DNA of 13,037 nucleotides from an uncultured archaeon (GTDB lineage: Archaea > Asgardarchaeota > Jordiarchaeia > Jordiarchaeales > Jordiarchaeaceae): assembly GCA_964510585.1 (NCBI GenBank), contig CAZECW010000073.1, forward strand, positions 1 through 13,037. The letters run 5' to 3'. Shown here one piece after another: positions 305 through 13,010 of this stretch; within the stretch, counting starts at the first letter, position 1; each line of letters opens with the position of its first letter. Below the pieces are notes generated by a model. That model worked only from the letters and a program-made list of their open reading frames with translations. It ran no database searches and was not told where the DNA came from. The position numbers and the translations under genes are program-made.

Positions 305-1462
305 ATGGTGATATGTAAATTGCCCGAAAAGCCGCGGCAACCAAGTTTAAAAAGTAAAACCCTCGGATTAATAGTGAATCCTATTGCGGGGATTGCAGGT
401 AAATATGCGTTTAAAGGTTCAGATAATCCTGAATTAGTCCAAAGGGCGATTGAATTGGGGGCGAAACCAATCTCGCCAGAAAGAGCCAAAGAAGCTCTGC
501 TTGTTCTTAACCCCTTGAAGGATGTATTAAGACTTTTAACTTTTCCGGGTATTATGGGTGAGGATGAGGCGAGAGAGTGTGGCTTTGAACCAGAGGTTGT
601 TGGTGAACTTTCTTCTGTAAAAACCACCCCTGAAGATACTAAAAAGGCAGCTAGAATAATGGCTGAGAGGGGGGCCGAATTAATCCTTTATGCTGGCGGC
701 GACGGCACCACAGTCGACATACTTGAAGCTATAGACCAAAAAGTCCCAATTTTAGGAATTCCTTCAGGAGTAAAAATCTGGTCAGCCACATTCGCTACAA
801 CCCCAAAAACCGCTGGTCTCATCACATTACGTTATTTATGGGGTGAACTCCCAGTTAGGGAAGCTGAAGTAATGGATATTAATGAGCAATTATTCAGAAG
901 AGACGAGTTAAATGTCCAGTTGAAGGGTTACGCAATAACCCCCTACGAACCTCAGTACTTACAAGGCTCCAAATGGATGAGTCCACAAACAACAAATGAG
1001 ATAGAGGATCAAAATGCCATAGCCCGTAGTGTTGTTGAGAACTTAGAACCTAATACAGTTTATATAATTGGGCCTGGAACCACCTGCAAAGCGATAGCTG
1101 ACTTATTAGGCATAGACAAGACCTTACTGGGAGTAGATTTAGTTCAAAATGGACGAATTATTGCGAAAGATGCTGACGAACGCGAGATTCTCAAAGCCAT
1201 AGAAAATGCAAAATCCAAAATAATTATAACGCCTATAGGTCGCCAAGGCTTTATTTTTGGAAGAGGGAATCAGCAAATAAGCCCTGAGGTGATTAAAAAA
1301 GTTGGAATTGAAAATATTATTGTTATAGCCACGCCCTACAAGCTCTCAACAATACCAACACTAAGAGTTGATACCAGTTGCCCCGAACTTGATGAGAAAC
1401 TAAGAGGATACATCAGGGTAATTACGGGATACCGCCAAATATTAATAAAAAAAATTCAATAA
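305..1462 (+). CDS. ATP-NAD kinase / AcoX-like family protein (COG3199-type)
   Basis: Has GLIVNPIAG near the N-terminus, the GGDGT kinase motif (YAGGDGTT), LGIPSGVK, GPGTT and ITPIGRQGFIFGRGNQQIS, all typical of this family. Substrate not determinable. Confidence 0.85.
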   Translation: MVICKLPEKPRQPSLKSKTLGLIVNPIAGIAGKYAFKGSDNPELVQRAIELGAKPISPERAKEALLVLNPLKDVLRLLTFPGIMGEDEARECGFEPEVVGELSSVKTTPEDTKKAARIMAERGAELILYAGGDGTTVDILEAIDQKVPILGIPSGVKIWSATFATTPKTAGLITLRYLWGELPVREAEVMDINEQLFRRDELNVQLKGYAITPYEPQYLQGSKWMSPQTTNEIEDQNAIARSVVENLEPNTVYIIGPGTTCKAIADLLGIDKTLLGVDLVQNGRIIAKDADEREILKAIENAKSKIIITPIGRQGFIFGRGNQQISPEVIKKVGIENIIVIATPYKLSTIPTLRVDTSCPELDEKLRGYIRVITGYRQILIKKIQ

Positions 1463-1578
1463 CATCCAAAAATTAAAATATAATAACATTTAACCTAAAT
1501 TTATTCTCGCGATACTCTTAAAAATAACTGAAACGAAATAAGCTAAAAGTAAAAATATTTGGATTCAGTTGGCGGTCA

Positions 1579-4194
1579 GTGGTGTCTAAACTACAACAGT
1601 TTATATACGAGGCAAAAAAGCTTATCCCTATACCAAGGGTCCAAGTAAGCAGGCAGACATTATTACTAGCTCTATCTCTTCTCTCGATTTTCGTAATAGC
1701 ACTCTGTATACGATGTATACCCTTCTTTATCTACCCTTCGTATATAAGAGCCTTCGATCCCTGGCTCCAGTATGAAAACGCTCTATACGTTTCAATATTT
1801 GGTTTTGACTCCTGGTTTGGTTGGTATGATCACGCCTCATGGTATCCCATTGGTAGGGATATATCTCAATCATTCTTTCCGGGAACCCCTTTTGCCGCTG
1901 CAACCATATACTTTTTGCTACATGCCATTGGGTTTAATATTGACATTTACATGATATGTTATTTCTTTCCCGCGTTTATGGGCGCCGTAACTTGTGTAGC
2001 AACCTATTTCTTGGGGAAAGAAATCTTGGACAAGAAGACTGGACTTATTGCAGCATTCCTCCTGGCGTTTACTCCTGCTTTTATTGAACGAACCATGGTT
2101 GGCTTTTTCGATAATGAGTCAGTAGGAATGCTGTTTCTGGTGCTATCAATATACTTTTTCGTACGTTCCCTAAAAAGAGGTTCAATAACATCTGCTGTTC
2201 TGGCGGGTCTCTGCCTAGGAGGGCTGGCGGCTAGTTGGGGTGCCCATCTATACCTAATGTACATATTTGCCCTAACTGCAATACTGTTATTGTTAATAAA
2301 AAAATATACACCCCGCCTCTTTATGACTTATAGTGTTACAATAACATTAGCAGTTATTATTATTACACGTGTACCAGCAGCGGGCGGCCCAGACGCATTA
2401 AAATCTATGAGTGTTATACCTGCATTAATCGTTTTGGCAATATTCCTATTTTATGAGGTTTTCCTCCGCCTTAATGCTCAAAGAACAATGATTCTAGAAA
2501 GTGTCATAAGGTATATTCCTTTAAAAGGTAAAGCTCTGGAAGGAGTCCAGTGGTTTTTCCAGAACAGAAAAAGATTCCTGATACTAGTTGGAGGGATAGT
2601 TTCAATTTTGGCAGCCTTGCTCATTGTAGTTAACTTAGATGTTTTTGGTAATATTTCTGGGCTTGCACCTAAATTTGTCTCAATAATTTACCCTACATAC
2701 CGGGAAGAACAACACATTGTCGCAAGTGTTGCAGAACAGATGCCAACTCCTTGGGGAATTTTCTTTTACGACCTCAACTTTCTTGTTGTTCTTTTTCCAG
2801 TAGGATTATACTTTGCATTCAAAAGAAGATACGAAGAAGATTTACTATTAATAATATATGGAGTTACTGTAACATATTTTACTGGATCAATGATTCGTAT
2901 TATAATCATGTTAGCTCCTGCCGCATGTATATTAAGCGCCTACGCCTTATCAATAATATTTAAACCGCTAGCCCAAGTTATCACTAGAAGAACCCTAACT
3001 ATAGCTAGAAGACGAAGAATGAGAATCAGTGTTCCCCTAGGGCGTGACACTGCCCTGCTGGTTTTTGCAATAATAGGAATAATTTTAGTCTACGCCTTCC
3101 TTCAAGGAGTTAATACTACCATATACTCTCCTCCGCCTTCAATGATAGTTAGGGATAGTTATGGTGGAGCATATCTGGATTGGGATCAAGCGTTTTCATT
3201 TATGAGAAATGAACTTCCCGAGGATGCTGTGGTTGCGGCTTGGTGGGACTACGGTTACTGGATCACAGTTAAAGGTGGAAAGATAACTTTGGCGGATGGG
3301 AACACGCGTAATTTCACACAAATAGGCTGGATTGGTCGCGCCTTTATGGAAACTAGCGAAATAAGATCCCTAGAGGACTTCCGAAGATTTAATGCTACAC
3401 ATGTACTGGTGTTTTTCGGATACAACGATGGTAACATACACGGCGATGAAGGAAAATGGTTATGGATGGTTAGAATCTCATTCGACGAAATAGTAAACTT
3501 GGTACAAAATCTCTACGAATCTGGAGCGTCTCAAGAGTACATAAATAATTTCATTGCCAACACCCCCTATGAATACCAGTTCTATAATCCTTACGTACTA
3601 CCGGGGACATCAACGATTCAAGAAGCCTTCTTTAACAGCACAATCTATAAACTATTGTACTATCACGCCCCAGAACCAAAAATTCATCCCAATTACTACA
3701 ACACTCTAAACCGTAACCTATATACTCAAATGAGCAACAATAAATATCCTCTGGTTATCGGTGGGAACGAAACGCTTCAAACTACATACATATACCTGTG
3801 GTCCAGTTGGACTGCAGGTTTTAGGACTCTCAACCATTTCAAACCAGTATTTATATCCAGCAATGGACTCGTGAAAATCTACGAGATAGACTACTCAATT
3901 CTAGACTCAAAGCTTGATATCAATAATCTGAGAGTATATGATGATTCAACGGGCGTTTTAAACATAACAAATACTGGATTAACTACGTACAACATCACCC
4001 AAATACTTTCAAACGGAACTAGTTGTACACTTAATATAACCCTTCCAATAAGTTTGGCGCCTGGAGAAAGAAAAGAAATTACCTTCAATGTAACTCAAAC
4101 AGTTAACGTAGGCGATAAACTAATTATTCGAATAGTTACAAGTATACCTGACTTTTATGTAGAAAAAATTGTTACAGTAGAGGCGAAACCTTGA
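1579..4194 (+). CDS. aglB: Oligosaccharyltransferase AglB (STT3 family)
   Basis: Multi-TM N-terminal half with FDPW, WYPIGR, GFFDNE and SVAE motifs. The C-terminal domain has WWDYG (3241-3255), DGNT and DEGKWLWM (DK motif). GTG start at 1579 or 1582. Confidence 0.97.
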   Translation: MVSKLQQFIYEAKKLIPIPRVQVSRQTLLLALSLLSIFVIALCIRCIPFFIYPSYIRAFDPWLQYENALYVSIFGFDSWFGWYDHASWYPIGRDISQSFFPGTPFAAATIYFLLHAIGFNIDIYMICYFFPAFMGAVTCVATYFLGKEILDKKTGLIAAFLLAFTPAFIERTMVGFFDNESVGMLFLVLSIYFFVRSLKRGSITSAVLAGLCLGGLAASWGAHLYLMYIFALTAILLLLIKKYTPRLFMTYSVTITLAVIIITRVPAAGGPDALKSMSVIPALIVLAIFLFYEVFLRLNAQRTMILESVIRYIPLKGKALEGVQWFFQNRKRFLILVGGIVSILAALLIVVNLDVFGNISGLAPKFVSIIYPTYREEQHIVASVAEQMPTPWGIFFYDLNFLVVLFPVGLYFAFKRRYEEDLLLIIYGVTVTYFTGSMIRIIIMLAPAACILSAYALSIIFKPLAQVITRRTLTIARRRRMRISVPLGRDTALLVFAIIGIILVYAFLQGVNTTIYSPPPSMIVRDSYGGAYLDWDQAFSFMRNELPEDAVVAAWWDYGYWITVKGGKITLADGNTRNFTQIGWIGRAFMETSEIRSLEDFRRFNATHVLVFFGYNDGNIHGDEGKWLWMVRISFDEIVNLVQNLYESGASQEYINNFIANTPYEYQFYNPYVLPGTSTIQEAFFNSTIYKLLYYHAPEPKIHPNYYNTLNRNLYTQMSNNKYPLVIGGNETLQTTYIYLWSSWTAGFRTLNHFKPVFISSNGLVKIYEIDYSILDSKLDINNLRVYDDSTGVLNITNTGLTTYNITQILSNGTSCTLNITLPISLAPGERKEITFNVTQTVNVGDKLIIRIVTSIPDFYVEKIVTVEAKP

Positions 4195-4343
4195 GCTTGA
4201 TACTTAGAGGAAAGAGTTCTATCAAGATTAGCGGATACGAATTAGCGTTCTAGTTTAAAACCCCAAACAATTTTCTAACTTAACTCCCCTTAAAATTCGT
4301 GATTTTTTAATTCTGAATCATATCTTTAACCGGAGGTTTACAA

Positions 4344-4532
4344 ATGAAATTTATGCTTCGGAAATGTGTATCGTGTGGGGAATATACCTTTAAAGAGGTT
4401 TGTCCTTACTGTGGAGGTAAGGTTAGGATACCACATCCTTCAAGATTCTCAATTGAAGACCGAGTTGGCAAATGGAGGCGTCAGCAAAAAAGGGAATTTT
4501 ACAAGAGGTGTGAAACGTCTAAGGGAACATAG
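4344..4532 (+). CDS. nop10: H/ACA RNP protein Nop10
   Basis: Reads RKCVSCGEYTFKEVCPYCGG (Zn ribbon) followed by PHPSRFSIEDRVGKWRR. GGAGG SD at 4332-4336. Confidence 0.95.
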   Translation: MKFMLRKCVSCGEYTFKEVCPYCGGKVRIPHPSRFSIEDRVGKWRRQQKREFYKRCETSKGT

Positions 4533-4538
4533 AGAATA

Positions 4539-5333
4539 TTAACTTTTCGGAATCACCAATGTTCCGCCTTCATTCTCTATGCTTGCCTTGGCGGTGTTAA
4601 TAATTTTTTCTAATGCAGACTCGGCTTGTTTGTAATCATCGGCAGTGATTTCTATTCGATACTTTGGTGAGCCTAGAGTATATATATTTATAGTAACTTC
4701 TTCATTTTGTACAGCGTTAATTGCATCTCTAAACGCCTTTTTTATGGCATCTATACCTGCACGCTTCCAGCAAGTCATTTCTACTGTTCTTGCAACGTTA
4801 ACTTTTGGGGGTTCTACGTGTGTTTTCGCTATTTCGGTAACTACTTCAATCCATTCTTTATTTACCCCTAAATCCTCTAGTACTTTTGATCCTTTCTCAG
4901 ATATTATCTCTAAGCCTCTGTATATGCTGCCATGTGCTTCTTCTAATTTGGAACCTACTTCCGTGTATGCTTCATCTAGAGTTTTTCCAATTTTTGCAGC
5001 TGCCATTTCCAAGAGTTTTTCTGCCTTTTGAGTTCTTTTCCATTCTTGTATTTTTTGGCGTCTTTGTTGTTCATTGACGCGCCTCAAAGAAAGATCTATG
5101 AATCCTTTTTGTGGGTTTATTCTGAGCACTTTTGCCACTACTTTCTGTTTTTCTCTAACAAAATTTCTTATGTTTCGAACCCAACTCAGAGCGATTTCCG
5201 ATATGTGAATCATTCCCTCTTTGTTATCGTACTCGTCAAGCTGAACATATGCTCCGTGATTAGCAATTCTGGTGACTGTTCCAATCACCAAGTCCCCCTT
5301 TTCTGGATATTCCCTTTTTGGCCTGACCACCAT
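4539..5333 (-). CDS. eif2a: Translation initiation factor 2 alpha subunit (aIF2-alpha)
   Basis: S1 domain YPEKGDLVIGTV...EGMIHISEI...WVRNIR...KGFIDLSLRRV, and C-terminal GSPKYRIEITADDYKQAE. ATG at 5333 follows GGTGA; the ORF-track GTG at 5339 is an alternative start. Confidence 0.97.
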   Translation of the reverse strand: MVVRPKREYPEKGDLVIGTVTRIANHGAYVQLDEYDNKEGMIHISEIALSWVRNIRNFVREKQKVVAKVLRINPQKGFIDLSLRRVNEQQRRQKIQEWKRTQKAEKLLEMAAAKIGKTLDEAYTEVGSKLEEAHGSIYRGLEIISEKGSKVLEDLGVNKEWIEVVTEIAKTHVEPPKVNVARTVEMTCWKRAGIDAIKKAFRDAINAVQNEEVTINIYTLGSPKYRIEITADDYKQAESALEKIINTAKASIENEGGTLVIPKS

Positions 5334-5344
5334 TATCACCTAGT

Positions 5345-5548
5345 CTAACTTAGAAACTGTTGCTTACTTTTTTTAACCATTATTGCTGCTTTTCCTCCAA
5401 GTGGTTTTACTAGAGGCTTACCACATACGTTGCACTTAACGATGGTGCTTGCCCTATCAAAAACAATCTGCTCTGAACCACAATCGGAGCATTGCACGTT
5501 AATAAACCTACTTTTAGGTTGAGGTAAAATTTCTTTGCGTTTAACCAT
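5345..5548 (-). CDS. rps27e: 30S ribosomal protein S27e
   Basis: Reads PQPKSRFINVQCSDC...VFDRASTIVKCNVCGKPLVKPLGGKA, the C4 zinc-finger eS27 signature. Confidence 0.97.
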   Translation of the reverse strand: MVKRKEILPQPKSRFINVQCSDCGSEQIVFDRASTIVKCNVCGKPLVKPLGGKAAIMVKKSKQQFLS

Positions 5549-5563
5549 ATGCAGAATACACTC

Positions 5564-5872
5564 CTACTGAATTTCCAATTTTTTAAGACGCATTCCCTTC
5601 TTTTGAATGGTATGCCCACACTCTTTGCATTTTAACTTAAGGGAAAACTTTTTGGTAGTCTTAGCAAATCTTTTTTGTATTGGTTTGCCCCAGCTCTACA
5701 ATTATATGTAGAAGTGTTTGGGCTGACTACCATACCCCTTTTTCTTCCTACTATAACGCCTAGCACCTTGCGCCATTTTTCTGTCCTTACCCTTCTTATA
5801 CAAGGAAACGGAGTGTTCAGTGTATGTTCTGCACTTCGGGCAGTAGGTACGTTTTTCTTTAGGATATAACAT
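5564..5872 (-). CDS. rpl44e: 50S ribosomal protein L44e (eL42), split gene: exon 1 5872-5718, exon 2 5684-5564
   Basis: Manual translation after removing 5685-5717 gives [91 protein letters not shown] (91 aa, both CxxC pairs). It sits at the canonical position upstream of rps27e and is absent from the ORF track. Confidence 0.93.
5685..5717 (-). other. Putative 33-nt bulge-helix-bulge-type mRNA intron in rpl44e
   Basis: Sequence ACACUUCUACAUAUAAUUGUAGAGCUGGGGCAA contains in-frame UAA and UAG. It has a central 4-bp helix GCCC/GGGC with an AAA 3' of the helix on each strand and an intron stem UCUACA/UGUAGA. Cutting after the 2nd A of each AAA restores the frame. Confidence 0.85.
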
Positions 5873-6036
5873 CAGTATACACCCTTTCTATATTCGATTA
5901 CATTTAGACAATGATGATTACACTTATATGTAATTTGAGCAATATCCACAACTCATTTTATACCTTTCGATTTTATATGCATTTAGAAGAAAAAGCTGAC
6001 AACCTTATTTGTTACTCCCCGAAGGTGTCCTCTAAA

Positions 6037-6576
6037 TTAAATTTGTTGAAAAAATAGAAGCTTCGCAGCATTTTTTAATATTAACGCTTTTGCATTCTCC
6101 CTTGGTAGGGTAGCAATGTCCTCAACTTGGAACGGTCCATAAATCTTCATATCGCTCCCCACTATAGCTGGAATCTGCTTTAAAAATCGAATTGGAATAA
6201 ACGTTTCATCCTTTTCTTCGATTACTCTAATTTCTGGGGAGAGGCTTTTTCCATTAAAAAGTTGCGAAAATGCATTTTTAAGGTGTTCATATACTACTTT
6301 TTCTTCCTGTGTTAATTTTTCGGTGTTTAGTTCTTTTTTGGCACGTATGTTCCTCAAAATTTTCTCAAGCCGGATATTTATGAGATCATTTAATATTAGA
6401 TAGAGAATATCATATTCTTTTTTGACAAGCTTACTCGCTAATGGATCTGATTCATTTTTGTATAGTTTTATTTCTTCTAAAAATTTTTTAGCTTCAATGT
6501 AGAAGTTAGTTTCAAGTTTCTGTAAGCTTTCTTCTTTCTGTTCTTTCTCCCAGACACTATAGATTTTTTCATACAT
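6037..6576 (-). CDS. gins51: GINS complex subunit, Gins51 (Gins15) type
   Basis: Helical A-domain (LQKLETNFY...RLEKI) followed by the C-terminal B-domain IRFLKQIPAIVGSDMKIYGPFQVEDIATLPRENAKALI. Lies directly downstream of priS. Confidence 0.88.
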   Translation of the reverse strand: MYEKIYSVWEKEQKEESLQKLETNFYIEAKKFLEEIKLYKNESDPLASKLVKKEYDILYLILNDLINIRLEKILRNIRAKKELNTEKLTQEEKVVYEHLKNAFSQLFNGKSLSPEIRVIEEKDETFIPIRFLKQIPAIVGSDMKIYGPFQVEDIATLPRENAKALILKNAAKLLFFQQI

Positions 6577-6591
6577 AACATGTTACCTCGA

Positions 6592-7833
6592 TTAAGTTTT
6601 TAGAATTTGGGCAACTCCTTTACAGAGGAGAAACACTGCCGCGGATAGTGGCAGTTCAACTTTTTCGTCTTTGTAGGGCCCAAAGGTTTCTTCTCCAATT
6701 CTAAAAGTAGGCACATCACCTGCGCGCACTGTTATTTGCCCCTCGAAAATCTGCGAATCGCTGAAGGGATCAAAGCTAGCTATTTCATTCAATTTTAAGG
6801 GTTTTACTTGGAAGCCTGTTTTTCCGTTAATAGATGTTGGAAGGCGTATAAGTCTATGTATATCAGCAGTAACCGGTTCATCTATTTTCCCCTTGGCCAT
6901 ATTTATAGCGCGTTCCACAATGAGAAACCAGAAGTTGATGTCAATATTTCTCATCGCATCCCAAAGCGGAGGGTGCTGGCTCAAGGAATTTATTATTTTT
7001 TGCTTTTCTTTTATTAACATTAGCAATTTTTTCTTTGTGTACTTGTCTTCCATAATAATTTCATTTTCCTGTAACTTGGAAATAAATTTAATAACATTTC
7101 GTGTAATTCGTCCTCCCCATCCCTTATCATTAGTATCAGGTCCAGTGATTACCTTTTTGCGTCCAATTTCTTGAAGTCCATGTAACTCTGGGTCGATTCC
7201 GCCGCCTTTAATATAGTCGATTATCTCTCTTCTTGCTTGAGAATTAAGCTCCTTCACCACTTCTGATTCGACATGTATATGGTACCCTCTGTGCCCAGAA
7301 AAACAGATGCCAATTTCACTTTTAGATAATCCAAAGTCAGGAATTAGAAAATCCTCCACAATTTTAATTGTCTCTAGCTTAGCATAATCCAAGCAAGTAT
7401 CGCAGAGCCATTTTAACTCTTCGATTTTGGACTCTCCACAAACGGGGCATTTATCTGGTTTGATCCCCTTGTCTGCCTTGCCGCATACCTGGCACTTCCA
7501 CTTGTCATGTTCATTTTTACAACTAGTTTCAATATGATCCGCATCAATGTCAAAAATTAAATCACATCCCTCCCATCCTTTCATAGGCATTTTAGGCATA
7601 GCTGGCTGGAAATAGTAAGCGGCAGAGTAGAACACATCTGAGGGCGCCTCTCTAGCTAGAAACGTCTTTAACTGGTTCTCATCCTCAAAACTTAAATGTC
7701 TAATAATTGACCCATACTTAAAAAACATAAAACCGAATTCTCTTTTACGCAGGTTAGAGGGCGAAATTATTCTATCAAAATTATCATTATAATAATTCCC
7801 AAACAAATTCGTTAAAAAATCAGCGGTACTCAT
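6592..7833 (-). CDS. priS: DNA primase catalytic (small) subunit
   Basis: Has REFGF, DVFYSAAYY, catalytic LIFDIDADH, FSGHRGYHIH and DIHRLIRLPTSINGKTG motifs. Confidence 0.97.
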   Translation of the reverse strand: MSTADFLTNLFGNYYNDNFDRIISPSNLRKREFGFMFFKYGSIIRHLSFEDENQLKTFLAREAPSDVFYSAAYYFQPAMPKMPMKGWEGCDLIFDIDADHIETSCKNEHDKWKCQVCGKADKGIKPDKCPVCGESKIEELKWLCDTCLDYAKLETIKIVEDFLIPDFGLSKSEIGICFSGHRGYHIHVESEVVKELNSQARREIIDYIKGGGIDPELHGLQEIGRKKVITGPDTNDKGWGGRITRNVIKFISKLQENEIIMEDKYTKKKLLMLIKEKQKIINSLSQHPPLWDAMRNIDINFWFLIVERAINMAKGKIDEPVTADIHRLIRLPTSINGKTGFQVKPLKLNEIASFDPFSDSQIFEGQITVRAGDVPTFRIGEETFGPYKDEKVELPLSAAVFLLCKGVAQILKT

Positions 7834-7896
7834 TTAAAAATCCCACTCTAAAATCAATTTATCATCTACTGGTCAAATATTATAAACAATGCCAAC

Positions 7897-8949
7897 TCAA
7901 ATAACTGCTTTTTCGCTTCCTTTTTGTCTACGCAAACTATTACGATAATAATTTAGAGGATGCTTTACCCCTTGGCACAACTCATTTTTTTCACATAGAC
8001 CATATGTTTGAAGTGTGCTGCATGTCGGTGGAGTATATTTTGTTCCACCTCCTCTAATTCCTGCGATATGCTCCACTTGATATCTAGTTAGTTCCTCATC
8101 AAAATCAGCAACATTACTAAATATTTCTACAAGCTCATCAACAGACATGCCTATATTTATCAGGAAAGAAGTGAGGGTAAACCTTGCGTGATGAGACATA
8201 CTTTTACCTGTAATAGCGTCGGATAAAATTTTCGATATGCAGGGAGGAAAACTATCTCTGGAGACTTCACCAAACCCTCCATCAATACCTTTATCTTTTT
8301 TTTGGGCTACTAACTTCGATTCTATAATATTAACCATTTCTTTTATTTCTGACGGCAGATCCGGTGGTTTACCTTTTTTTTCCATAAGGCGCCACTTTAC
8401 CGCTTCAGAGATCAACCTAGCCACATCATTTTTCCGAAGATATACGTAACCCCTATGCAAAACTCTGTTTACTAGTTTCCAGTATTTATCCTGAAAATAT
8501 GGAGCGTATTCCAAGTAGTTGACAACATTTAGTTCATAATCGTAAAAACGCCCACTAATGCTTTGGCGTGGCGCCTTTCTAATATCCCACCCAAATGTTT
8601 CTCTTGCAATATGAATCAGTTTATCATTTTCTTCCATAGCTAAAAGTTTATCAACACGTTTAGACTCTGCAACCGCATATCTTCTTCTTAAATAATCATC
8701 TCCTAGTGATTCGACAAGTAGACGCGCCAATGGAAAAGAAAGGAGCTCTTCTATGTAATTATCATCTTTGTAAGAAACGATTCCCTTTTCTAAAGCTTCA
8801 ATGATCCGTTCACTACCTCTTCTAAGAAGAGAAGAATATTTTGGAGAAACCAAATCCCCAATATCTAAATTTAGATTCTCAATATATTTCTGGGCTTCCT
8901 TTGTGAAGGGATACTTAGCTAAATCACCTTTGGATGACATAAACACCAT
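7897..8949 (-). CDS. priL: DNA primase large subunit with C-terminal Fe-S domain
   Basis: Has KYPF at the N-terminus and RGYVYL. The C-terminal domain FPPCI...HHARFTLTSFL...TRYQVEHIAG...YTPPTC...GLC...ELC...HPLNYY has four Cys. Alternative ATG at 8940. Confidence 0.96.
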   Translation of the reverse strand: MVFMSSKGDLAKYPFTKEAQKYIENLNLDIGDLVSPKYSSLLRRGSERIIEALEKGIVSYKDDNYIEELLSFPLARLLVESLGDDYLRRRYAVAESKRVDKLLAMEENDKLIHIARETFGWDIRKAPRQSISGRFYDYELNVVNYLEYAPYFQDKYWKLVNRVLHRGYVYLRKNDVARLISEAVKWRLMEKKGKPPDLPSEIKEMVNIIESKLVAQKKDKGIDGGFGEVSRDSFPPCISKILSDAITGKSMSHHARFTLTSFLINIGMSVDELVEIFSNVADFDEELTRYQVEHIAGIRGGGTKYTPPTCSTLQTYGLCEKNELCQGVKHPLNYYRNSLRRQKGSEKAVI

Positions 8950-9240
8950 TTCACTAACCCTTATCTAACATGGTTAATAAACAAAATTAATATTTTTCAT
9001 CCATTTCCTAATTTTGACCCTTAAACTAATATATCCTAGTTGGACATTTAAACACTTGTGAAAACAGTAAATTTAATTCAGAGAAACACACTACAATACA
9101 CACTAGTTTAAAGAGGCGCCTTACTTCCTCCAGAACTTTTCGCTTGGCATTATTCTTTCTGCAGATGTGTTATTACTAATTATAAAAATTTAAATTAAAA
9201 GACACATTGCTCTCAAATAGGATCCGTTTCTATAACTCCT

Positions 9241-9996
9241 TTATTCTGCTTCTATTCTTGGAGCTAGCCAATATGTTAAGCGCCCTCCGCCAATAATGTT
9301 GAATTCTAGTTTTATAGGCATACTGGTTGAGAACTGAACTGTAACTGTATCGCTTGCCGCCGCTGCCTTCATCATATCCATTAGGTAGCTGAGAGCATAC
9401 ATTGCTTTAGAATTTTCAGTTACATTTAACTCAAGGACTGCGTCGCTAGATTTAGGCAACCTGATTTCTACCCCTCCTGTATCTCCTGAAGCATTGATAT
9501 CCAACTCTTCGGGGGTGGCCTCAACTTCTACATGGTCACTTATCACTTCTGCGTCCTTCAAGGCTTCCTTCAAAGCGTCTGCAGTCATTTTGATTTCGGC
9601 GTTAAATTTAATTGAGGGAACAGGAGTTTCTTCATGTGTCAAATCAAGTAAGCCAATATGGAATGTGCGTATGGATGCGCCCTTAAACGTAACATTAAGC
9701 TTATTCTTTTCTGGATCGAGAGACAGTTCTAACGCGTCTCCGCCCCCCGCTCTTCTCATTATTCTGGACATATCCTCAAGGTTTATTCCCAGTTTAACTT
9801 CACCACTACAGTTATATTCGCTAAAGGCGTTTTTTGGTAGTTCGAAGTCAACCATAGCTACATGACTGGGATCCATCGCCCTGGCGTGCAGGGAATTTTT
9901 GTCTGCTATGAAAACTAGTTCATCGACTAAACCAGATAGAGCGTCTATAATGTTTTTCCAAAGCTTCGCATCCGTAAAGGCGAATTTAAGAGACAT
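9241..9996 (-). CDS. pcn: DNA polymerase sliding clamp PCNA
   Basis: Has RAMDPSHVAMVDF, LGINLEDM and C-terminal LTYWLAPRIE. ATG at 9996 follows AGGTGA (10007-10002), so the ORF-track GTG at 10005 is probably part of the SD. Confidence 0.98.
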   Translation of the reverse strand: MSLKFAFTDAKLWKNIIDALSGLVDELVFIADKNSLHARAMDPSHVAMVDFELPKNAFSEYNCSGEVKLGINLEDMSRIMRRAGGGDALELSLDPEKNKLNVTFKGASIRTFHIGLLDLTHEETPVPSIKFNAEIKMTADALKEALKDAEVISDHVEVEATPEELDINASGDTGGVEIRLPKSSDAVLELNVTENSKAMYALSYLMDMMKAAAASDTVTVQFSTSMPIKLEFNIIGGGRLTYWLAPRIEAE

Positions 9997-10170
9997 ACAT
10001 ATCACCTTTTTTAAGGGTTCTCAAATAAACTAATATAAGTGATTTGAGGTAAATCAACCCATGCCCCATTTAAATAATTAATTTACAGGTGCATATTTAC
10101 AGTCCCATTCATTTTTAAACAATTCTCATAATAATTCTGTTGTTCCCCTTTATAAGCTCCCTAGGTTAAG

Positions 10171-10542
10171 TCAAAACATCTTTTCTACAGATTTCTTTAA
10201 CCGCTCCACTTCTGAGCGTAACTCAATATTAAGTTTATTCATGTTTTGAATTATATTTGCGTTGATTTGTATTTCGCCATCTTCTTCTGCTGGTAAAACT
10301 GTTCCAAATACTCTTACCTTATCCCCTACTTTAACTTTGCTTAATATTGCATCATCAAAAGCCACAATTTTTGCCTTACCAGTCCCATCATCAATAAGGG
10401 CGACGTTTTGTCTTTTCTCTAAAACAACACCCAGAACTTTAATAAAAGAAACATCATTTACAGCAATATCCTTAATCTGTTTTTCAATTGCAGGATGCTT
10501 AGGTCTCCATGAACCGCCCTCATTACGCTGATTACGCGACAT
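10171..10542 (-). CDS. Small single-OB-fold protein, RPA14/RPA3-like replication protein A subunit
   Basis: Reads PAIEKQIKDI...VLGVV...IDDGTG...VGDKVRVFG...INANIIQNM followed by a C-terminal helix. This is the pattern I recall for Thermococcales RPA14 (PAVERKI...LDDGTG...VRVIG...IQDF). ATG at 10542; TTG at 10551 is an alternative. Confidence 0.75.
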   Translation of the reverse strand: MSRNQRNEGGSWRPKHPAIEKQIKDIAVNDVSFIKVLGVVLEKRQNVALIDDGTGKAKIVAFDDAILSKVKVGDKVRVFGTVLPAEEDGEIQINANIIQNMNKLNIELRSEVERLKKSVEKMF

Positions 10543-10656
10543 TAAAATCAACTCTTCAAATATTGAAACGTAAAGACTCTATTAAATGTATTACTGCCCC
10601 AAAAGTCAGGTGGATCTTCCTTAAAGTTCTAGGTTAATTGTGAATCTTTTATGAGA

Positions 10657-11142
10657 TTAGTTGGAGCGTTCAATTATGATTTGCTCCAAAGCCTCTCTAA
10701 GTATGTGGCACATTTTCGTCCTCTTTCTGGGGTCAATTGCAACCATTCCATACGTTTTTACATTTAAAAGATCTTCAACTTGCGAGGGCTTCATCGCACC
10801 TGGAAGATCCTGTTTATTAGCTATAGCTAAAACTATAGTATTAGGTTTATTGCAAAATTCTTCAATTATTTTGCGGGTGTTTAAAACGTTTACAGGGGTT
10901 GAATCAGTAACTACAAAGATGACCTTCGCTCCCCGCATAAAACCATTCCACAAAAAACGAAAACGATCTTGCCCCGCAATATCAAAGAGACTAACTTCGC
11001 ATTCACCCAATGTCACAAAACCGAATGATATACCGATGGTCTGTTCGTAGTTAGTGACTGTCCTATTTTCACTTAAAAGGGTTATGATACTGGTTTTCCC
11101 AACCGCGGGAAGCCCGATAAAAGCTACTTTTTCATGTCTCAT
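10657..11142 (-). CDS. Ras-superfamily small GTPase (Arf/Rab-like)
   Basis: G1 GLPAVGKT, G2 Thr in YEQTIG, G3 DIAGQ, G4 NKQD in ANKQDLPGAM; 161 aa. Confidence 0.92.
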   Translation of the reverse strand: MRHEKVAFIGLPAVGKTSIITLLSENRTVTNYEQTIGISFGFVTLGECEVSLFDIAGQDRFRFLWNGFMRGAKVIFVVTDSTPVNVLNTRKIIEEFCNKPNTIVLAIANKQDLPGAMKPSQVEDLLNVKTYGMVAIDPRKRTKMCHILREALEQIIIERSN

Positions 11143-11290: not shown

Positions 11291-11384
11291 AAACATACAT
11301 ACGCTGAAGCGTTCTAGACAGAGAATGAAAATAATTTTCATGGTAACCTACATAAGCTTCGCTTTTTAGGCAAAGTATGAAAAA
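11291..11384. repeat. Left part of a palindromic ~52-bp tandem repeat array (one partial and one degenerate unit)
   Basis: CATACGCTGAAGCGTTCTAGACAGAGAATGAAAA (ends 11331) and TTTTCATGGTAACC...TAGGCAAAGTATGAAAA (11335-11383) match the units right of the IS. Confidence 0.8.
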
Positions 11385-11419
11385 TCTTTTCTTGTTCTCC
11401 CGCGTCTTAATGGTGTTGT

Positions 11420-11573
11420 GGGCGCCGGTGGAAGACCGTTCTTATTTTGGGGCTCTTGACCCCCTTTAATGGTAAACTGGTCTTCGCCCCCTCTTGACGG
11501 CTAGACAAATTGGGCCTTGGAGCCCGCATGGCAAATTGTCGCCGATGACCTTTAAGGGGCGTCTCCGGCGCTC
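11420..11573 (+). ncRNA. Candidate IS110 bridge/seek RNA in the left non-coding end
   Basis: Nested stems: GGCGCCGG 11421-28 with CCGGCGCT 11565-72; GAAGACC 11431-37 with GGTCTTC 11479-85; GCCCC 11486-90 with GGGGC 11556-60; GACAA with TTGTC. The position upstream of the recombinase matches the IS110-type layout. Confidence 0.6.
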
Positions 11574-11594
11574 CAATATTAGGAGGTGTAGTTT

Positions 11595-12814
11595 GTGTTA
11601 GATAAGGCTTGCGGTGTGGATGTCCATAGGGACAGCCTCGTGGCAGACATCATAGGTGACGCCTCGGCGGAGAAGAGGGCTAGATTCGAGAACAGCTTGG
11701 AGGGCATAGAAAACATAAGGGCTTGGCTTAGAGAAAACGAATGTGAACATGTGGTTATGGAGTCCACGGGAGTTCACTGGGTTCCCCTCTACACAGCCCT
11801 TGAGGAGGCGGGGGTTCATGTGGTGCTGGCGAACGCCTACAAGGTTAAGAGCACACCAGGCCGTATGACCGACACCACAAGTGCACAGTGGTTGGCTCAG
11901 CTCCTGAGAAGCGGTTTGTTAAGCCGAGCTACGTTCCTGAGAGGGGGATTAGGGACTTGAGAGAGTTGACCCGGTTCCGGTTTTTAAGCTTGTTCAAACC
12001 AGAGCCGATTTTAAGAATCGGTGCCACAAGGTTCTTGAGAGGGTTAACATAAGGCTGGGTTCCAGACTCAGCGACATCTTTGGAAAGGCGGGGACGGAGA
12101 TCCTTTGAGGGCCTCATAAACGGAAAGACAATAGAGGACATAATTAACCAGAGCCAGAACAAGTGGCTGAAGAAGAGGAAGGAAGAGATTGTCAGGGTGG
12201 TTGGGGGAGCCTTAAGCCAGGTGGACATGTTCATACTGGGGAAGTGTGTGGACATGGTGAAGTACCTGGATCAGATGATTTGTAGGCTGGATGATATGAT
12301 TAGGGGATTGATTGATGAGGATGATTTAAATCTCTTGGCCACGGTTCCTGGTGTGGATGAGAGGGCGGCGGCTGTGATTCTGGCTGAGATTGGTGATGTG
12401 GAGCGTTTTAAGAGTGGTAAGAGTCTGGCTTCCTGGGCGGGTCTGGTTCCCTCTGTTCATGAGTCGGCGGGAAAGAACCTGACTGGAGGTATAACTAAGA
12501 GGGGTTCTAAGTGGCTTAGGCGTATTATGGTTCAGGTGGCTCATGCTGCAAAGAGGGTTAAGAATTCCCAGCTGAGAGAGTTTTACCTGCGGGTGAAGGC
12601 TAGGAAGGGTGAGAAGACTGCTGTTGTTGCCCTGGCCCGGAAGATTCTCACCATAATATATCACATTCTGGTTAACCGTGAGCCCTATGTTGAGGAAGGC
12701 TTCAAGAAGAGGCTTAGGCTCAGGGCTGCTGTACATCCAAGTGGGCTTTCCTTGGAGGATATGGCTGAGGTGTTGAGGAACGCCGGCTACCTGGTGAGTC
12801 CCCTCTCCGACTGA
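11595..12814 (+). pseudogene. IS110 transposase/recombinase with three frameshifts
   Basis: AGGAGGTG SD at 11581-88, then GTG 11595. Motifs GVDVH, MESTG and TD in the N-terminal RuvC-like domain; TVPGV, AEIGDVERF, SWAGLVPSVHESAG and VALARK in the C-terminal domain. Frame breaks at ~11920, ~11983 and ~12106. Confidence 0.88.
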
Positions 12815-12826
12815 AGGCGAAAAGCT

Positions 12827-13010
12827 TTTTCATGGCAAACCATTATACGCTTAAAGCGTCTTAGACAAAGTATGAAAATTTTTAGTTTTTCATGGGAACA
12901 TTCATACGCTTAAGCGTTTTAGACAGAAATATGAAAAAAGTTTTTCATGGCAAACCATTATACGCTTAAAGCGTCTTAGACAAAGTATGAAAAAAGTTTT
13001 TCATGGCAAA
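12827..13010. repeat. Right part of the palindromic tandem repeat array (3 full units and 1 partial)
   Basis: 12827-12878 and 12942-12993 are identical 52-mers, TTTTCATGGCAAACCATTATACGCTTAAAGCGTCTTAGACAAAGTATGAAAA. 12887-12937 is a 51-bp variant, and 12998-13010 starts a further unit. Confidence 0.93.

Follow-up and report, generated by a model that had tools for sequence, protein, structure and literature searches.

Introduction

IS621 and ISCro4 (PMC11208160, PMC11208158), the closest described systems, combine a DEDD RuvC and Tnp protein with a two-loop RNA encoded upstream of the gene, the target loop preceding the donor loop, and insert at a 2-nt core without further duplication. Members of the IS110 group place the left guide before the right and have inverted repeats of only 2-3 bp. 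The IS1111 group, guided by seekRNA (ISEc11, ISKpn4, ISPa11; 10.1101/2024.04.26.591405), has subterminal inverted repeats of 7-17 bp and a top-strand match 5′ of the bottom-strand match, and its RNA lies downstream of the gene. IS110-derived MITE-like elements are already known, as are tandem non-coding units beside IS110. MITEPpu9 of ISPpu9 is non-autonomous, has ends like those of its parent and forms circles (PMC12288879). Tandem non-coding units that adjoin an IS110 transposase carry left-donor sequence at their boundaries and were inferred to arise by local duplication, with the statement that the target is not regenerated (10.64898/2026.08.14.744561).

Here we describe an IS110-family element near the end of the window, by which we mean the whole 13,037-nt stretch of archaeal DNA that was analysed. 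Our overall reading, to which we give a probability of about 70%, is of a 1,492-bp element whose core is AA, which has subterminal inverted repeats and a bridge RNA encoded upstream of its gene, and which lies between its own non-autonomous miniatures of 54-60 bp. The element shares with IS621 and ISCro4 the type of protein, the upstream two-loop RNA with the target loop before the donor loop, and a 2-nt core without extra duplication; unlike them, it has a reversed guide order within each loop, an AA core and long inverted repeats. With the IS1111 group it shares subterminal inverted repeats and the top-strand match 5′ of the bottom-strand match, but its RNA is upstream and 30-36 nt separate its left repeat from the end. 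Although it belongs to the IS110 family, the element fits the definition of neither group, having neither the left-before-right guides nor the 2-3-bp repeats of the IS110 group; this placement was judged by features, the tree covering the loci gathered here.

Results

A decayed IS110 transposase gene

The transposase gene (11595..12814, + strand) is a pseudogene with PF01548 and PF02371 domains, in agreement with the family named in the sequence-only reading of this DNA. Compared with an intact, near-identical protein, P0001, it carries frameshifts at 11912, 11981-82 and 12104, two of which are also present in Logan contigs of run X1. The source assembly contains three full copies of the element, all frameshifted, plus several fragments; the intact gene was found in other assemblies only. 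P0001 scores 277 against NF033542 (cut-off 140), and the likeness to the IS621 and ISCro4 protein extends to PDB 8wt6 (E=1e-20). Catalytic residues D9, E56 and D93 are conserved, and the serine loop aligns with that of IS621. At the fourth DEDD position (P0001 residue 96; window ORF 11595-11960), P0001 and several intact homologues have Ser where most have Asp. The nearest named relatives are from Jordarchaeia/Freyarchaeota, followed by Bathyarchaeia, methanogens and bacteria, and a metagenome scan returned mostly distant relatives. One Jordarchaeia copy (L004 / L123) has a transposase gene interrupted by ~170 bp and is without a left end.

Element ends and core

The sequence-only reading had placed the element between two CTTTT sites. 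The letters that it quoted are indeed there (left text 11375-11396, right text 12816-12836, 18-bp linker 12931-12948), and joining the two sites does yield an 18-bp palindrome. However, the element is not the ~1.44 kb delimited by those sites: its true left end is 32 bp upstream of, and its right end 3 bp downstream of, the junctions then quoted, so that it spans 11345-12836, or 1,492 bp counting one AA core. The left AA core (11345..11346, +) was located from homologue boundaries, from a left target guide that fits the preceding 5 bases and from a contig with a loose end at 11345. It is followed by the left end outside the inverted repeat (11347..11376, +), common to copies at unrelated sites, and by the left subterminal inverted repeat (11377..11391, +), earlier taken for the left half of a linker. 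This repeat is conserved in the clade and complementary at 14 of 15 positions to the right subterminal inverted repeat (12819..12833, +), which was recognized by conservation among homologues. Bases 12834-12836 form the right end of the element, and the right AA core is at 12837..12838 (+). The non-coding ends measure ~250 bp on the left, upstream of the gene, and 22 bp on the right.

The assignment of these ends and of the AA core rests on homologues that are identical yet differently located, on an oxidase gene split by an insertion and on covariation between guides and flanks. An identical element found at several sites has in common the sequence that begins ~32 bp ahead of the left arm and stops ~5 bp past the right arm. 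At L183, where a multicopper-oxidase gene is interrupted, a sensible reading frame is recovered only after the whole left segment has been removed, and the orthologous site in the genome G001 is without the entire insert of the window locus. Filled and empty sites have one AA core in common, with an ambiguity of ±1 within A runs, and show no further target duplication. The ATGAAAA...TTTTCAT arms belong to the element because distant homologues carry the same arms as inverted repeats: they are found as such in Jordarchaeia, Bathyarchaeia, methanogen and bacterial homologues, perfect over at most 23 bp and mostly 8-23 bp long, and are retained to ~35% protein identity. Where core mismatches could be followed junction by junction, their inheritance fits expectation at L180 and L183 and is contrary to it at L021. 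An intact Bathyarchaeia element (L101) has, beyond its inverted repeats, ends that fit neither of the donor guides.

Several parts of the earlier account change with the ends. The core is AA rather than CT, and C56 and C196, the other full copies, have A in place of the right-hand C of the supposed core. The insertion point is between repeat units and not in a linker; the TC-centred linker that the earlier account reconstructs has no occurrence in the 3.8-Mb genome, where AG-centred linkers occur 10 times and TG-centred linkers 6 times. The circle junction proposed from CTTTT ends is likewise superseded by ends at the AA core. Logan contigs of four runs contained neither a circle junction nor a clean empty allele, a result of no evidential weight as contigs drop rare forms; a joint of 11379 to 12935 in X4/X5 has a short side of only 35 bases and may be any miniature. 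It had been suggested that other copies in unrelated sequence would speak against a repeat target; once their ends are correctly placed, C196, C177, C216 and most homologues do lie in unique sequence.

The window locus

The two sides of the window copy come from different places. Its left flank adjoins the right flank of C56 in G001, the positions concerned being window 11290 and G000 C56:2693, its right flank comes after other sequence in G001 and G004, and another assembly joins the 5′ half of C56 to the 3′ half of the window copy. For the left flank of C56 itself, comparison with relatives gave no clear orthologue. The window copy is evidently a recombinant or an assembly chimera, and its two flanks do not make up a single insertion site.

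Several side observations concern this region. At least the last 119 bases of the window match the end of contig C181 without a difference, through either recombination between IS copies or misassembly. Within 12800-12854, a contig of run X4 changes strand at the hairpin apex of a miniature (U2, below), possibly a palindrome artefact. The runs holding the stretch are hot-spring metagenomes; no RNA run is listed among them, which carries no evidential weight. Beside the insertion, Pfam matches indicate a small Arf/Roc/Ras-type GTPase (10657-11142, −) and an OB-fold protein (10171-10551, −). Further away, the ORFs at 305-10005 presumably encode proteins resembling an NAD-kinase-like protein, AglB/STT3, eIF2-alpha, GINS, PriS, PriL and PCNA.

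A bridge RNA and its target guides

Covariation indicates a bridge RNA gene with two internal loops between the left end and the transposase gene (11411..11590, +). Both sides have changed in 12 of 15 named base pairs, 83.7% of cells are paired compared with 28-52% in slid controls, and four helices are backed by compensatory change. The single-sequence fold is unremarkable (z = −1.64). A search of the region against Rfam returned no family, and a sigma-70 scan, a model that does not cover archaea, returned no promoter. From the covariation, we regard a structured RNA with loops fitting target and donor as present.

Loop 1 is the target loop. The right target guide on its 5′ strand (11438..11448, +) is antisense to the flanking bases that follow the right core, matching 4.45 of 6 positions versus 2.91±0.15 on permutation, and the left target guide on its 3′ strand (11469..11476, +) reads in the same sense as the flanking bases that precede the left core, matching 4.21 of 5 versus 2.89±0.13. 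Neither score was reached in any of 20,000 permutations; the windows for the guides had been positioned by hand, and every score, permuted ones included, is that of the best offset. In the window, the right guide misses the immediate right flank because the flanks derive from two loci, and a Logan contig extends past 12839 with the bases that this guide predicts. The guide order in loop 1 is reversed and is that of the IS1111 group, yet the RNA is upstream, as in the IS110 group.

Donor guides and a left-end hairpin

The 5′ donor guide (11501..11511, +) is non-canonical. In IS621, the corresponding guide is antisense to the adjacent right donor, whereas here it has the same sense as a distal left-end site beyond a hairpin, with 6.59 of 8 positions matched versus 4.01±0.23 on permutation. 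This site consists of 8-9 bases ending 2-4 nt ahead of the left inverted repeat, ~25 nt from the core; in the decayed copy of the window it lies at 11367..11374 (+) and matches at 7 of 8 positions. Canonical antisense tests of the donor gave chance values, the right donor guide scoring 3.16 against core-adjacent DNA versus 3.37±0.15 on permutation. The 3′ donor guide (11528..11535, +) is same-sense to the right end together with the core and matches at 7-8 of 8 positions in most elements, a match that is no independent test since the guide was located by search. Donor-guide matching is short in Bathyarchaeia (5-6 of 8). Among 21 disjoint pairs of relatives, picked by hand and mostly from the tree of loci gathered here, 22 of 35 changes in the 5′ donor guide have an exact counterpart in the DNA, and 14 of 112 unchanged positions differ. 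An isolated donor-loop remnant was also seen at G000 C204:11632-11699, near sequence that we take to be the end of an IS605/IS607-type element.

Between the core and the distal donor site lies a DNA hairpin with a 4-bp stem and a 3-nt loop (11354..11364), its apex often about midway. Stem pairing is by C-G in 47 and by A-T in 11 of 70 miniature units, a compensatory exchange. Left ends form more stable folds than shuffled sequences (mean z −1.17 versus −0.23 for flanks), with a hairpin that is weak or unpredicted in 20 of 44 left ends. Wobble pairs number six on the top strand versus three on the bottom strand, so the bottom strand is not favoured. Relatives with short left ends (L007, L153-159) have no hairpin and an antisense arrangement by eye; the rooting of the tree is too weak to order the two states.

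The repeat consists of miniature elements

The repeat array in which the element sits is real (TRF period 56, score 270; 84 HMM matches genome-wide). Each unit comprises the core, a left end with the hairpin, the two inverted repeats with a variable linker and a 3-bp right end, that is, the left end of the element fused to its right end. By this anatomy, the repeat is a non-autonomous miniature of the IS110 element. To the left of the element, U1 (54 bp; 11291..11344, +) is identified by an HMM match and by its AA core, hairpin-bearing left end, collapsed inverted repeats and 3-bp right end; it is missing, together with the IS, at the orthologous G001 site. To the right are U2 (60 bp; 12837..12896, +), recognized by HMM match and unit parsing, U3 (55 bp; 12897..12951, +), of a type found in six identical copies, and U4 (56 bp; 12952..13007, +), with the last core at 13008-13009. 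This array is missing from the orthologous flank in G001 and G004.

The Jordarchaeia (Asgard) genome contains 61 intact units at 49 sites, nearly all outside long ORFs. In filled and empty pairs from the same genus, the inserts lie exactly at the AA core and measure 170 bp (made up of three units), 54 bp and 53 bp; C64 carries an empty paralogue of the C70 site. Thirteen identical miniatures lie in unrelated flanks and carry a linker that is in no full copy, while C136 shows deletion intermediates that retain more of both repeats. Like MITEs, the units are geneless, dispersed and insertion-polymorphic and have the ends of an autonomous element; their inverted repeats, however, are subterminal and asymmetric rather than terminal, and only the core is shared with the target. 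From comparison of loci, we are nearly certain where the element ends, what its core and its four guides are, and that the miniatures were inserted precisely at AA cores.

The right-end type of a miniature predicts its target class according to the guides of the matching helper (14:1 versus 4:9, Fisher p=0.001, the copies being non-independent). Units with a right end fitting the C177/C216-type donor guide occupy targets that fit the target guide of that type, and units of the window type are mostly located after a pentamer resembling the right end. Miniatures would arise by deletion between the inverted repeats and would then be moved in trans by intact copies, an origin that the sequences make very probable. 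Miniatures of like design, ~70 bp long, occur in methanogens, in the Methanotrichaceae genome G067 (L254, L257, L259) and at L253; a search of five Bathyarchaeia genomes with one strict pattern found none.

Probable self-targeting and nested arrays

The target guide of the lineage in the window fits the ends of its own family. Between the window copy and C56, the left target guides differ at a single base, a difference that the flanks of the two copies repeat exactly, and each guide spells out the family's right end; the right target guides of the two copies resemble an inner site before the left repeat. The earlier proposal of repeat targeting therefore stands in part: the target guide of the window sub-lineage does fit the right end of the family's own miniatures, but the repeat is not a host repeat.

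Arrays are both tandem and nested, probably because this guide fits the family's own ends, and unit types are mixed within them. At L221, an outer unit encloses five identical units, and the site that these occupy fits the target loop of the full element L104 once the first unit is present; in G001, a resident unit has gained at its 3′ core a further unit that differs from it. Of 19 pairs of neighbours, all 19 are arranged head to tail and none in opposite orientation; the inverted palindrome pairs of REP/BIME repeats do not occur. Circular permutation at the inner site, first suggested by half-units, was dropped when unit parsing gave nesting. Each insertion would leave a new matching site, with arrays growing in tandem or nested. 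That arrays extend themselves through a target guide that spells the right end as well as the inner site ahead of the left repeat is, in our view, probable.

Discussion

What the repeat is can be decided largely from its ends and flanks. A palindromic repeat of the host, struck at a CT core in its linker as IS621 strikes REPs, would explain why repeat-like sequence lies to the left of every copy in the source genome, and IS621, ISPpu10 and ISPa11 in REPs are precedents. That left sequence, however, is the element's own end, and the supposed linker palindrome is its own subterminal inverted repeat; the empty linker predicted by such a target is missing, the guides fit flanks outside the unit, and empty alleles are without the whole unit. 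We consider a host target highly improbable, and no more credit goes to a REP/REPIN-like repeat moved by an HUH (Y1) transposase: hairpins are short as expected, and the genome has four Y1_Tnp matches, but unit ends coincide with the IS110 core, flanks obey the bridge-RNA guides and inverted pairs are lacking. Those Y1 matches are in G000 C7, C169, C162 and C81, one of them in a 571-aa frame. More serious, although still improbable, is the view that miniatures are scars, full elements having lost their interior in place and arrays having formed by local duplication under a half-match model (10.64898/2026.08.14.744561). Deletion intermediates exist, tandem non-coding units with left-donor boundaries have been reported beside IS110, and the five identical units of L221 fit local duplication. 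Scars do not account for the 13 identical miniatures with a linker in no full copy, nor for the added unit of L227, which differs from the resident, nor for arrays of mixed unit types. Local duplication may contribute to arrays, while the units themselves are best read as mobile miniatures. The closely linked, RNA-guided archaeal element without duplication beyond its core, as seen in the sequence-only reading, is upheld by these comparisons.

The form of the donor is less settled. Apart from a flip of the DNA, the reversed guide order reproduces the geometry of IS621. In that element, cleavage begins on the strands bound by the 3′ guides, so here the bottom strand would be exchanged first. 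Because the 5′ donor guide is same-sense to the distal site, both donor guides would pair with one strand, the bottom strand, and the left-end hairpin would fold this strand back and place the second site opposite the core. With guides on one strand and a hairpin bringing the distal site opposite the core, the donor may be read as a folded single strand, much as attC is read by integron integrase, and a copied-out single strand, most simply a single-stranded circle, would be a complete donor. We lean slightly towards this reading. The same anatomy could instead serve a double-stranded donor, the hairpin acting as a cruciform or a protein-binding spacer, or the distal match being used for excision or circle-free transfer only. 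A single-stranded circle and an extruded hairpin are indistinguishable by sequence, the stem being self-complementary on both strands, and the wobble pairs show no bottom-strand preference; CazIS110-1, with its circle-free route, prefers duplex at one junction. Against this, both donor guides address one strand, and single 54-bp units move although they are too short for easy duplex looping or circularization; a 54-bp duplex circle is physically unlikely. We regard a double-stranded donor as rather unlikely, and slightly favour the folded single strand. Single-strand excision has been reported for IS621 (10.64898/2026.08.31.748434) and for CazIS110-1 (10.1101/2025.10.25.684509).

These features set the clade beside, and apart from, known systems. 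Integron attC sites are read by a tyrosine recombinase without RNA. DNA secondary structure would take part in recognition here as it does at attC and in ISPpu10, but ISPpu10 has its stem-loop in the target and its guides on opposite strands (10.64898/2026.03.19.712850), and in attC-targeting IS1111 members the folded partner is the target, whereas here it would be the donor. MITEPpu9 resembles our units in being IS110-derived and non-autonomous with parent-like ends, but it has a small-RNA gene, while the miniatures are 54-60 bp of ends only, and nested. The arrays resemble the reported tandem units in adjoining a transposase and in having left-donor sequence at boundaries; unlike those units, they consist of complete two-ended miniatures, which are also dispersed singly, and the guide regenerates the site. 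In the literature searched (outside ISfinder and subscription journals), we came upon no earlier account of a donor guide that pairs on the same strand across a hairpin, of ends-only 54-bp mobile units or of self-regenerating nested arrays.

We put forward, as a proposal about evenly balanced between right and wrong, a widespread archaeal-bacterial IS110 clade in which the donor loop has been rewired to a folded single strand, 54-nt ssDNA mini-circles transpose, and guides for the element's own ends build polar and nested arrays that regenerate themselves. The miniatures account for an Asgard repeat family that resembles operators or spacer-less arrays, and annotation of ends at the inverted repeats misplaces boundaries and guides clade-wide. 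The 54-bp units would be a natural minimal donor and very small mobile elements. One-strand donor pairing across a hairpin, if true, extends the bridge-RNA rule of opposite-strand pairing and suggests a recombinase that accepts single-stranded donors. Preprints of 2025-26 openly disagree on whether the intermediates of IS110 elements are single- or double-stranded, a question that this clade makes directly testable.
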